NCBI GenBank assembly: GCA_030248215.1
Contig: JASANG010000440.1
Span: 310,001 to 374,000, forward strand
DNA: 64,000 nt
Direction: 5' to 3'
Source: Enoplolaimus lenunculus
Lineage: Eukaryota
The notes under the pieces are model-generated. The model was not told the origin of the DNA and did not search any database. It was given only the letters and a program-made list of their open reading frames with translations. The translations under genes and the position numbers were made by a program. Positions 38,801 through 44,800 of this stretch are shown here, piece by piece; within the stretch, counting starts at the first letter, position 1, and each line of letters starts with the position of its first letter.

Positions 38801-41800
38801 AGCTCAACGGCTCGTCGAACTGATTTTTGTTCCTCAACACACAGTCCAACATGGATGAATTGATTAACTCGCTGACAAGTTCCACTGCATAAGACAGGAG
38901 TTGTCGCTTGGGGACAGTTGGTTTGGGGTCCCCACGAGTGCACGTTGTATGCTTCTCTGTGCGAGCACAACATAACATCTATTGGGTTCATGTAAAGGGT
39001 TGCTTACTACGCCTAAACCTAAGCCTGGTCCTAAGCTTAAAAATTGTTCAGTCAAACAGTTCCTCTGTTTTTCATTGGTCAGTTTCCTATATCTGACATA
39101 CGGTATGTATCAGGTAAAAATGTTTCTCAAAATCATTATTAGTTCAGATTGTGAAACCAAGTGACGCAATTAGAATTTAAGTCTAAACCTCTATTCACAC
39201 GTGCAAGTTTTTGCTGCGAGAACTTTACAGCTGCGACTTTCACTTGCATGTTTTGTCCAAAATTCCGTTTGTAACACTTCAGGCTGCAAGCAAGTCACTG
39301 AATTTATTGCAGCCGCTGTCTCATTGGCTGATGAAAAAGTACAATTTCTGCGTGCAATTTGCAGCTGCAAGTTCTCACTGCAAAAACTTACACGTGTGAG
39401 TAGAACTTAATCCTTTACCCGTACAAGTGAATTTTAAATTTTAACAGCGGCGATTTGAAATTTTTTGAAAATTTTAAACGATTACCGATTATTAATAAAA
39501 ACTTTGCGTTTCGTGAGACGTTCAGTAAATTCACAAAGACTGCGCCACCCCCCCCCCCTGGCGATCTGTATAAATAGCATTCCCTACTACGCGAGCTGGG
39601 AATGTAAATCCGAACGAGGGAATCCACTAAGACAATCAATAGTTGAAATGTAAACATGACATTTGACGAAATCTAAATATTTTAGGAAGCGTTCGACGTT
39701 CTACAATTTGAACCGCCTGTCAAGTTTGGCACCTATCAAGTAACCGCTGGCATTATGCATTTGGGTCAAATGAAGTTCAAACAACGACCACGTGAAGAAC
39801 AGGCCGAAGCTGACGGCGTTGAAGGTACGTTGTTGCAGTATGGTTGTGGATGTTCTCAAATGTGTGTAGCACCTGTTATCAGTTAGCCAACGGTTTTCAA
39901 ACAGAGTGTAGCCGGAGGTTAAACATGAAGGAACCGTCGCCGAAGGAAATGGATGAACCTTGGCCGAGGGTTGCCATACATATCGGCCAGATCAGAGCCA
40001 ATAGGAAACAAGTTAGCCGGAGTAGGAGCCAGATGTGTACCCATTTTCTCAAGGGCAGAGCAGGAGCCAAAGATAAAGCAAAATTAGGCAACAGATAGAA
40101 CAGGGCCGTGTTGGTACTGACGGTGTGCACTACCCCTGTTTGAAGTTTTGCCCAAAGTTAATGACCACGCCGGGAATCGAACCTCGGCCCTCTTATGCTG
40201 GAACCAAGCGTGCTACTAGTACACTACCCGGTTATTGCAACAACTTCTCATCTTTATACCGGTATATGTGCACAGGCACGACAACATTTGCTTTACATAC
40301 ATATACGCGCACATATACCGACAGGCCGTAACAGTAGTATAAGCATATTCCTAATCTGCACAGTGTTAAAAGTTTGCTCTGTGAACAACTTTGCACAAAC
40401 CTGGAATCGGAGGTCAATTTTCTGCCGGGACACGAGGAAAAACTCTGTTATGGGCCGGTTTTCGAACGAAACCAATTCAACGTTTAGAGTTGATTTCGAA
40501 CACGAATGATTTTATTTGCCGACTGGCGCATAGGTGATACACACATTTGAGAATACCGATCCTAAGTTGTTACTTTAGCTGTTTGGTGTATGGGTTTATC
40601 ACAGTGTCATAAGACTTAGGGACGTCAATTTATGATTAGCTAAAGTTTAGGCCCGCCTACGCAAGCCAAATTGTTTTCGAATTTAAGATTAAACTTTTTG
40701 TCTTCATTTTGTATCCTGCAGTTGTACGTTTTGAAATCTGTAAACGTGTAGGTTTTTTTGGCCGTTTCTCCAAAAATTACGTGAGTGGATATTTGTGCTT
40801 GTATCGTGACGTGTTTGAGAAGCCGCTGAAATTGATTGGGTTAAAGGCCTATGCAAAGATCACGGGCGGAACGTTTTTCTGTGGGACTGCAATAGAGTAA
40901 GCTTAAGCTTTGGACTAATTTTTTTACTTAGGCTTAGGCTTAGGAATGAGCTCATTCTTACGCTTAGGCTTAGGCTTAGGCTTAGGATTAAACTCATTCT
41001 TACGCTGAGACTTAGGCTTCGGCTTAGGCTGACTTAGGCTTAGGCGTAGGAATAAACTCATTCTTACGCTTAGGCTTAGGAATAAGCTTATAATACTGTC
41101 CCGTCCCTGTTCTTTACATTAGCCATTTTATCGTGACGAGTTAGAGACGCCTCTGAGATCGACTGAGTTTGCCGGCGTTTCAGAATGCGGTCATGCTTGT
41201 GCTAATTTCGGCGTTGATGCCGAACAATTTATGGTCAGTCTTTTGAAACCAAAGGTCAAAGTTGGCAACGAATGGGTGGCTAAGGGTCAAAATTTGGAAC
41301 AGGTTCGAAGCTTGTAATTACTTCGAGGCCTTCCTCTCTGCCTGCGAGTCCGTACCGGTTTTTCTGAACTGTGCCAGCTTCGCTTGTATACTGCCTTATT
41401 TCCTTCCTTTACCTTAAATGTCTACTTTCTGTAAATTTTCCTTCCTGATTAGTGTAAGCATGTGAGACATGGTTGTCCGTTATGTGCACATGCAATATAC
41501 TACAGTGCATTGTGTGTATGCTAGCCGGTAGCATACGGTCTACATATATATTCGACGATAAATGCAGTCGGAAAAGCGGGCGACGTGGCGCAGTGGTTGA
41601 ACGTTCAGTTAAGGATCCACAGCCTTGAACTTCGATCCACACTTTGAAGGCTCGCGTTTCCAGCGGCGAGTTAAACGGTCTAAAATTCCGGTTTCTACCC
41701 AGACTGGCAATCAGATCCATTGAGTGAGTTTTGTGCAAATCTGATCTCTGCGTTCTGTGCTTATGCAAAGCATCTTCCCGCACTGTGCGCTAAGTCGCTA

Positions 41801-44800
41801 AAGCTTTGCCTAAACATTTTTGTAGAAATCTCAACTTCGCTGGTTCAGCACCATTTAACTGGTCTATTTCAAATCGATTCTGTATATCTGCATTTTCTGG
41901 TTGAAATTTATTTCGCTCAAACGAGAAAATTTCTGGTTACACAGCATTTATAACAGCGCTTTTTGTAGCTTTTCCGCAATTTTGGGGGTTTGCCCCTATC
42001 TCTCAAGTATACGCCCCCCTGCTTAATATTGTGTAAATTCCATCATTTCTTCTATGATTTTCGGTCATCCTTCAAATTAGTCTTTGCCTAATATTGGCGT
42101 ACAATATGTATAATAATATTTTGTTTATTTTCACTAGCTAAGTAATTTTGTTGTATAATAAATAATTTTTTTAGAATGTGGCATTGTATGTCAATGCTTT
42201 GGCGTAGACGCCGAAGGTTTTATGTCTGCGCTGCTCAAACCCAGGGTTAAAGTCGGTTCCGAATGGGTGTCAAAGGGTCAAACTTTAGAACAGGTTCGAC
42301 CGGTGTTAAATTCACTTTAAACTTCACGTTCACCTGTTTTACCGTGTCACGCGACATTTTGCCTATTCACATGTGTGCGTTTGTGCACCAGAACACTTGT
42401 GTTGCATGACCAATTGGAAATTAGCAAAACAATGATTTTCTAGCAATGATTAGTCTGTATTCTCAAATGGGTATATCGCCCACGGCCGGAGCAGCAGCAC
42501 CCCATACCTCCATTTGGGGCCCCTCACCCCTAAAGGACCCCCACCCTAACCGGTTGAAACAAAAACCGCTCATGTTTTAAAATGCGTCTGGCTACTCGCT
42601 CGCTTCTCTCGCGAGTTTGGGGGGGCGCCCACGATGGAATTTGGGCGCAGTCCCTAACCCTGCCTGCTCCGGCACTGATATCGCATATCACCTATATAGT
42701 GTTATAAACGCGGTATTTGAATTTTCTTTAACTGCGTTTGCAAAATTCCATAAATCAGTCCATACTCAAAAACTGAACAATTCTTAAGGGTTCGCTATGC
42801 TATTGATGACGTCCGGTGCCGTTTATCGTCACCCCCTCCCATCGCCGGACGTTTGTCATATGGCGCCGTCCGCAATCGTCCATCACCGTACGCCACTTTG
42901 CAGTATCGTACGTTAAATATTAACACACGATACCGTATGGCTGTGAGCGGTGATGGACTGCGACGGACGGCGCCGTACGACAAGTATAACGCCATCCATA
43001 TCCTTGCGGTTGAGTTGTGTTATACGCTTTTGAGAATACCGACCTCTTGCCTTGAAGCTTGTCATTCAAGTTTGTTAATGTGGTGTGTGTTTCTAGCAGA
43101 ACATTATTAATTTCATGGTTATATTTCCAGATTCCAAATACTTCGAGGTGTTCTTATGCGTATTTGCTAAATACTTCTACAACGTCGCTTCTTGTATTAA
43201 CAATATTTTATCATTTAGTTTGCTTATTTTCCCATTCCGTCTACGTAAATGATGTTTACATCAATACGAAGGTATAGAAGGCACATCTTCGCTTCTTGAA
43301 TTATCTTTTTTTGTTGGAAATGTAAGCATAAACCACTGTTCACAGATGCAAGTTTTTCAAAGGTAAACGCGTTTACAAATACATTAAAAGCGTGCCGTGA
43401 TAATACACAGATCACAGAATGCTAAGCTTGCATTTGAGATATTTTGAGCTTAAACCAAGCGTGGGATAACAATTTGAACTCGGATTGAACTCAACTGGAT
43501 CAACCTTTGAGCAACTGAAGCAAAAAGTTGTAATATTAGCAATCAAAGCTGGTACAGTCACCCCCTATGGATTTGGGTTTTGCAATTTAGATGTTAGTCT
43601 TTTGTTTCGAGAACTATTCTACTAACAAATCATTTTTTGAATATTTGCACATTTTCGCTTCTTGGCAAATACTAAACTTTTTTAAGTCTTCATACAAAAA
43701 CAGTATTTTTCAATTTATTCAGAAAAGTATTTTCAGCGACAAAAATGAAGCGCTTTTTTGTGATATTAAACACAATTTTTCAAAAAATAACGGATTTCAG
43801 ACTTTATTTCAAAAACTTTTTTTTTCTAAGAAATTCTCTGTTTCGTAACAGAAATACGTTTCAAGTGCACGTTACTGATCATATTTCTTAAATGTAAGAA
43901 TTTTTTCTTAAATATCAGAAATGGGAAACACGTGTCTTTAAGTTATATTTTAAAGTCAGAACAAGTGTGAGGCAAGACGGTCGTAGCCAGATTTAGGTTT
44001 CAGGTTCAAATCCCTTTAGGATGTTTGTTCACAGAGTTTAACAGACCTCTTCATTTTGTACCACAACAAGCCCCCTTTGAAATTTTGACCCATCCATAAA
44101 ACCGTGTTTCCGTTAGGCTGCAATAGACTCGGCTTAAGATTTAGACTGTTTGTTTAACCTGTTTAGTTACACTTTCGAATATGCTTATACTACTGTTACG
44201 ACCCTGATCTTTGCACAGGCCGAAATTATATCATACCTGGTCCTTTTCTCATACCACAACAGTGTCCAAATTTGAGTTGCAGAATATTCATCTTGAACTA
44301 TCGCAATGCCCTGGTTTGACCTCTGCAAAAAATATTTATTTTCAGGTAAAATGGTCTGTTGGCGCGTTGGCAAAAGGTTTCTACGCTCGACTGTTCGATT
44401 TCTTGGTCACCCGATGTAACAAAACATTGGACGCTCAAGAGATCGAACGCAAACACTTCATTGGTGTCCTGGATATCGCAGGATTTGAAATTTTTGACGT
44501 AAGTTTCCTGTTTCAAAATCGCTGTAAATTGATTTCAACGCTGTGATCAGTTGAAAGTTTAACTTTTACCTCGATTGTTTACGCTCAAAATTTGACCATA
44601 AAACATCGTTGGCGTTTGAACCAGAGTGGACTTCTTATGCCTTGTGGAAATTTTGCACTGTGTATACGCGCAATATAATAAGGATTGTGCAATAGTTGTC
44701 GTCCGGCGGTTCATAATCGTCCGTCACTACATGGTATCATAAGTGAGTTATTTGCGTACGATACCGCACCGGTGACGGACGTTGCCGTACGGGTAACGGA

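Follow-up and report, generated by a model that had tools for sequence, protein, structure and literature searches.

Can a single muscle myosin gene of a nematode make two different motors by splicing alternative copies of one exon? This question is raised by a 64,000-nucleotide (nt) stretch of DNA (contig JASANG010000440.1, positions 310,001 to 374,000; referred to below as the window and numbered from its first letter), in which a muscle myosin heavy chain gene has two homologous copies, 10a and 10b, of the exon covering the cardiomyopathy loop (CM loop) of the motor domain. Judging from the sequence, we regard it as highly probable that 10a and 10b are a working mutually exclusive exon pair, of which one copy is used per mRNA. 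The gene and the exons concerned are as follows.

32798..64000, + strand: class II muscle myosin heavy chain gene, with an open frame and GT-AG introns; its 3' end lies past the window
39686..39824, + strand: exon 9, the loop-4 exon, single copy, with the borders of the published cluster-6 (Daphnia exon 11)
41184..41302, + strand: exon 10a, 119 nt, phase 1/0, donor GTTCGA, Lys at the R403-equivalent position
42175..42293, + strand: exon 10b, 119 nt, phase 1/0, donor GTTCGA, Arg at the R403-equivalent position
44346..44498, + strand: exon 11, single copy

The gene model was assembled by hand; it starts at the ATG at 32798 and reaches the end of the window in 36 exons, or 37 when both copies of exon 10 are counted. 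Every intron is GT-AG, and 1740 codons can be read without a stop when one copy, 10a or 10b, is included. The full-length matches of the predicted protein were muscle myosins, identifying it as class II muscle myosin, with 64–68% identity to nematode and 58–60% to insect myosins. Both 10a and 10b matched Pfam Myosin_head, under the curated cut-off owing to the length of the exon. The coordinates, 119-nt lengths, phases (1 in, 0 out), AG acceptors, CAG/GTTCGA donors and both translations of the original prediction all proved exact, as did the neighbouring junctions at 39824 (end of exon 9) and 44346 (start of exon 11). It had also held that inclusion of both copies or of neither breaks the reading frame; a TAG at 42205 is met with both and a TAA at 44417 with neither, and thus exactly one copy is needed for an open frame. 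We then looked for second copies in the introns flanking all 34 internal exons, taking candidates with AG/GT borders, the same phase and a length within 20 amino acids, and using a re-implemented BLOSUM62 score. Exon 10b reached 70.6% of the exon 10 self-score, and the best candidate for every other exon scored below zero. A tblastn search within the window gave the likeness of 10a and 10b an E value of 2e-16; it is not due to chance. Kollmar and Hatje look for neighbouring exons of the same phase with AG and GT borders, a length difference within 20 amino acids and at least 15% similarity; 10a and 10b are neighbours of phase 1/0 with such borders, identical length and 70.6% similarity.

The two copies are identical at 81 of 119 nt and at 28 of 39 residues, 11 residues being different. 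As had been claimed, identical residues often use different codons (12 of 28), and the proportions of synonymous and non-synonymous differences were 0.72 and 0.22 respectively (Fisher p 5e-6). The proposed comparison of substitution rates gave a non-synonymous rate (dN) of 0.26 and a synonymous rate (dS) of ~2.3, a ratio of ~0.11. Outside the exons themselves only the six donor bases are alike, and their retention in both copies speaks for the pair; the flanks are 23–40% identical ungapped and unalignable. Near-saturated silent sites together with unalignable flanks exclude alleles and make a misjoin unlikely. An assembly artefact, in which the locus had taken in an allele or part of a myosin paralogue, is extremely improbable: nematodes do have several myosin genes, but 68% nucleotide identity is far beyond alleles, no other exon is doubled, and with a misjoined paralogue one would expect adjacent exons to come along or the gene to be broken.

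Against a profile of 116 distinct nematode-type segments, 10a reached 76.5 bits and 10b 77.2 bits, and 21 of the 116 members scored lower than either. These scores bear on a poison-exon reading, according to which double inclusion shifts the frame, decay lowers the myosin output and one protein only is made in quantity. Inclusion of both copies does lead to the stop at 42205, and both donors are weak: GTTCGA, common to 10a and 10b and found in none of the 34 other donors of the gene, outscores only four of them. A poison exon, however, needs no protein conservation, yet the dN/dS ratio is low and the profile scores are equal, and we consider this reading very unlikely.

To follow the history of the copies, we ran decay simulations held to 17–21 third-position differences (19 observed), in which a run passed if the copy was open and at least 28 residues were identical. 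With both copies alive throughout, 2150 of 3998 runs passed, compared with 260 of 9094 when one copy was dead for the last half and 8 of 9800 when it was dead from the duplication onwards. Together with the dN/dS ratio, this bears out the earlier claim of purifying selection on both copies for most of their history, recent silencing aside. As read from the codons, the duplication is old and both copies have been selected for most of the time since.

The pair might still have lost one of its members lately, both copies having once been used, 10a now being a recently silenced pseudo-exon and 10b alone being spliced. Several observations count against a working pair, and one of them concerns a repeat.

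40845..41131, no strand assigned: interspersed repeat with TTAGGC-like units, related pieces at ~24 places in the window

This repeat ends 53 nt before the 10a acceptor. That acceptor scores under all 34 constitutive acceptors and is the weakest of the gene, and the 50 nt upstream of it, with 54% G+C, are the most G+C-rich such stretch in the gene. In addition, dS is near saturation and was obtained from only 39 codons, and 985 of 4182 simulations with one copy dead for the last tenth passed, so that dN/dS cannot distinguish a recent death. Two conserved sites of exon 10a also bear the less common residue, K in place of R (15 of 116 segments) and S in place of A (14 of 116). On the other hand, 10a has kept an intact donor and the acceptor core TTTCAG, the commonest core (16 of 36 acceptors), and in six of the 34 constitutive exons a repeat lies nearer to the acceptor than in 10a. 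Its profile fit equals that of 10b, which carries rare residues of its own in the 116-segment set, and Lys at the 403-equivalent site occurs naturally, as in scallop myosins. Taken together, we regard recent silencing of 10a as unlikely. The 10b acceptor is ordinary and T-rich, scoring above 17 of the 34 constitutive acceptors. Hence the splice-site pattern fits a default 10b with a regulated 10a, and it equally fits a fading 10a.

If the pair is working, the choice between the copies would probably be set by RNA-binding proteins, as suggested by short motifs downstream of both copies.

41458..41516, + strand: candidate Fox-family/SUP-12-type sites downstream of 10a (GCATG 41458, GTGTG 41512)
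42373..42408, + strand: candidate sites downstream of 10b (GTGTG 42373, TGCATG 42403)

In the muscle of C. elegans, Fox-family and SUP-12 sites govern the choice between the two egl-15 exons (PMC2777236). The TGCATG at 42403 is one of three in the myosin gene, and 10a, 10b and one more of the 36 exons have GCATG as well as GTGTG in the 250 nt that follow them. The motifs were picked after the sequence had been seen, which likewise speaks against the pair, and the candidate sites are thus only a lead. A search for competing RNA duplexes (a docking site with selectors) yielded interrupted helices only, of −14 to −23 kcal/mol, and such a mechanism was not supported; those long inverted repeats in the introns that were checked matched interspersed repeats. 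In the mechanism that we propose, 10b with its ordinary acceptor would be the default and 10a with its weak acceptor the regulated choice, mRNAs with both copies or neither would be removed by nonsense-mediated decay, as their early stops suggest, and splicing of exactly one copy would give two motor isoforms that differ at 11 residues in or just before the CM loop.

What do these 11 residues do? The exon 10 segment corresponds to residues 380–419 of human beta-myosin: query residues 9–40 (of 40) align without gaps to MYH7 388–419, and positions 383–387 were placed by extrapolation. The description of exon 10 as the CM-loop exon was right in that it covers the loop, and too narrow in that the exon extends beyond it, with seven of the 11 differences preceding the loop (383–398). 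The four differences within the loop are K/R403, N/S408, A/S412 and N/T416 (10a/10b), and V404, V406 and V411 are invariant between the copies. The closest structural match of both exons was PDB 6qdj, 'Myosin-4', which we take to be C. elegans UNC-54. Arg at 403 was found in 70 of the 76 retrieved nematode-list proteins with the motif (125 examined). R403 is the founding site of the cardiomyopathy loop, in which V404, V406 and V411 bury a hydrophobic actin surface and the tip is variable (PMC8698748). We would predict a modest tuning of strong actin binding through the four loop positions, with the hydrophobic core unchanged; the isoform effect is expected to be a fine tuning of actin binding, not a change of kind, and it would serve different muscles or stages.

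Next, we asked from which lineage the myosin comes. The claim that it is of nematode type held: it groups with nematodes versus arthropods (100/100), and at 38 sites diagnostic between the two it agrees with the nematodes at 30 and with the arthropods at three. For exon 13, all of the named top matches (best 120 of 346) were nematode myosins with 85–95% identity, and for exon 27 the best named matches were Trichuris (72%) and Romanomermis (69%). No protein was more than 68% identical with the window myosin over its whole length. In an IQ-TREE analysis (LG+G4; 17 of 41 rows; without a nematomorph, priapulid, tardigrade or named enoplian), the 13 other nematode-type rows together formed the sister group of the window myosin (98/98), and this group took in unc-54-type as well as myo-3/dorylaimian myosins; of the 13, six are metagenome sequences taken as nematode by their position, as L022 was taken as arthropod. 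FastTree on all 41 rows agreed for the whole protein (0.94) and was weak for head or rod alone. A full-length myosin mRNA, L016, branched near the base of the nematode myosins and not close to the window, possibly representing a second early-branching lineage. The median intron of the myosin is 660 nt (36 introns of one gene); published medians are 558–1893 nt in four Enoplia, 65 in one dorylaimid and 58–1099 in the early Chromadoria rows, and Enoplia, with their long introns, are placed as sister of all other nematodes (PMC10450198). TTAGGC, the canonical nematode telomere unit (PMC12643312), occurs 122 times over the two strands of the window and forms runs inside repeats. Thus the window myosin branches at the base of the sampled nematodes and is probably enoplian. 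A horsehair worm origin instead is conceivable, the tree having been made without nematomorphs. A basal myosin that keeps ancestral exon borders (exons 8, 9 and 12) and long introns would in itself be useful for dating the nematode myosin duplications.

Is the pair then a new invention or an inheritance? Clusters 0–11 of mutually exclusive exons have been catalogued in Mhc genes, numbered from the N- to the C-terminus; they are considered to have arisen early, with later evolution marked by loss, and nematodes are said to have lost all of them (PMC3912159). C. elegans is the sole nematode in the species table of that paper, and the statement on nematodes therefore draws on this one species. 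Of these, cluster-6 corresponds to the exon of loop 4 and cluster-7 to that of the relay (PMC2257972). A comparison of exon borders with the published clusters, as had been suggested, showed that exons 8, 9 and 12 match the ends of clusters 5, 6 and 7 respectively. Exon 10 lies between cluster-6 (exon 9) and cluster-7 (exon 12) and has no cluster number in the accessible part of the catalogue, in agreement with the earlier claim that the duplicated exon is outside the known clusters. A 'K V G' string in the available portion of the 2008 alternative-exon file (PMC2257972) was a chance occurrence in the converter exon.

The original prediction had left independent origin and ancestral retention side by side. 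The former fits and the latter does not: the cluster exons are single or fused here, the duplicated exon is uncatalogued, and the copies share residues that are rare elsewhere (Cys1 in 0, Gly2 in 3, Met16 in 8 and Ala12 in 11 of 116 segments). These shared lineage-specific residues favour a new origin over retention, and we rejected the latter, which would need an ancient exon 10 cluster lost in all of the other surveyed species. Gene conversion between older copies could mimic the shared residues; a duplication within this lineage, after its split from the other sampled nematodes, would be the simpler reading. Several points weaken the case. In a segment tree 10a and 10b do pair, at a low support of 0.19, and 10b is matched at 28 of 39 residues, as many as it shares with 10a, by one unrelated nematode segment. 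Two copies of exon 10 were found in none of 23 metagenome loci, none of which is a close relative and most of which are spliced or short. Finally, identical neighbouring exons outside the clusters have been described in a bee and a midge (PMC3912159), which could bear on the novelty of the position. A word-index search with exon 10a gave no candidate, exact matching of five exon-based open reading frames in the protein collection gave none, and a protein atlas search gave weak matches only; these searches thus led to no annotated or transcript-derived copy of the gene. A look-up of 39600–44600, most of it intron, listed no RNA data set, a result that counts neither for nor against splicing. 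On balance we lean, with moderate confidence, towards the view that this is the first mutually exclusive pair in a nematode muscle myosin, invented anew in an early-branching lineage at an uncatalogued exon, as a CM-loop switch with Lys/Arg403.

The window has several further features. Approximately 23% of it is repeated within the window itself. The repeat upstream of 10a belongs to a family of short interspersed elements in which the ends, around runs of the TTAGGC type, are conserved; the family occupies the ~24 places given above (e.g. 40845–41131, 47060–47405 and 24780–24985). Simple or tandem repeat arrays lie at 9400–9890, 10390–10715, 38260–38545, 49180–49450 and 60790–61290, several of them in myosin introns, and the array at 38260–38545 ends ~15 nt before the exon 8 acceptor. 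A tRNA-like stretch in intron 9 (40162–40233, − strand) scored 30.2 bits, just over the Rfam cut-off, and was not called by ARAGORN; a related piece lies at 45979–46030, and a short repeat derived from a tRNA is the likely identity of the stretch. Near 41580–41700 another tRNA-like start was seen, by eye only. Upstream of the myosin, three long open frames on the + strand (25797–26408, 27563–28129 and 28243–29316) had no Pfam match; at the end of the first is a hydrophobic stretch, with a GT donor after it, and the region 25797–29319 is probably the gene of a single-pass membrane protein with a low-complexity tail. An open frame at 45–434 (− strand) has an RS-rich stretch and no Pfam match above the cut-off, and what follows the RS-rich stretch resembles, we presume, the start of an hnRNP F/H-type RNA-binding domain.

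If the pair is what we propose, it would amend two published views: one is that gene families are the only means by which nematodes tune muscle myosin, the other that the Mhc clusters appeared early and that only losses followed (PMC3912159). It would also provide a natural pair of motors whose sole differences are 11 residues in the CM loop and the segment preceding it. The effect of changes at the loop tip on motor function is little known (PMC8698748), and the alpha and beta cardiac myosins of humans are the same at this place (PMC8629898). Exclusive splicing as a mechanism is well known, and the lineage concerned is narrow as far as shown. We found no report of such a myosin exon pair in the literature on exclusive exons, nematodes and the cardiomyopathy loop, most subscription journals lying outside our reach; the accessible parts of PMC5583752, PMC3923563 and PMC8629898 contain none either.

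How does the pair compare with known systems? Within nematodes, C. elegans diversifies its muscle myosin through the separate genes of UNC-54, MYO-3, MYO-1 and MYO-2, unlike the 10a/10b pair. None of the 76 retrieved nematode-list proteins had two copies of the motif, a count to which hidden exons are invisible, as proteins cannot reveal them. Nematodes are able to splice in this manner in other genes, 389 mutually exclusive exons having been predicted in C. elegans (PMC3923563). One nematode parallel in splicing is egl-15, whose exons 5A and 5B are chosen through ASD-1/FOX-1 and SUP-12 with the same short motifs nearby (PMC2777236). In egl-15, however, the motifs lie upstream of the repressed exon, whereas the candidate motifs of the window lie downstream of both copies, and the genes are different.

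Within myosins, exclusive exon clusters had been taken to characterise arthropod Mhc genes. This does not hold, since they also occur in molluscs, annelids, flatworms, echinoderms, a hemichordate and a ctenophore (PMC3912159). Among 100 isoform records from eight insect species, each species shows variation in its cluster-5, relay and converter segments, whereas the CM-loop segment is constant in seven of the eight. The eighth species, Cydia splendana, has two CM-loop segments, which we rejected as an exon swap: they differ by two residues at the exon start and were read as a junction variant. The isoforms P0089 and P0091 of this moth and P0024 of Cydia fagiglandana have AS for EG exactly where the loop-4 exon meets the CM-loop exon, and an alternative splice site at this ancient intron may be the cause. 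Two further records with two matched stretches, P0131 and P0174, were likewise rejected as paired exons, as these are internal repeats off the exon borders; their sources are a set without a name and a sturgeon record that carries a contamination flag. The Mhc clusters described by Kollmar and Hatje share with 10a and 10b the gene family and the arrangement as tandem copies of equal phase and length in the motor domain, and they share ancestral exon borders with the window myosin at exons 8, 9 and 12. Unlike in the animals with Mhc clusters, all of the catalogued cluster exons are single or fused in the window myosin. Thus, as far as exon structure tells, the 10a/10b pair works like the known Mhc clusters and is a member of none of them.

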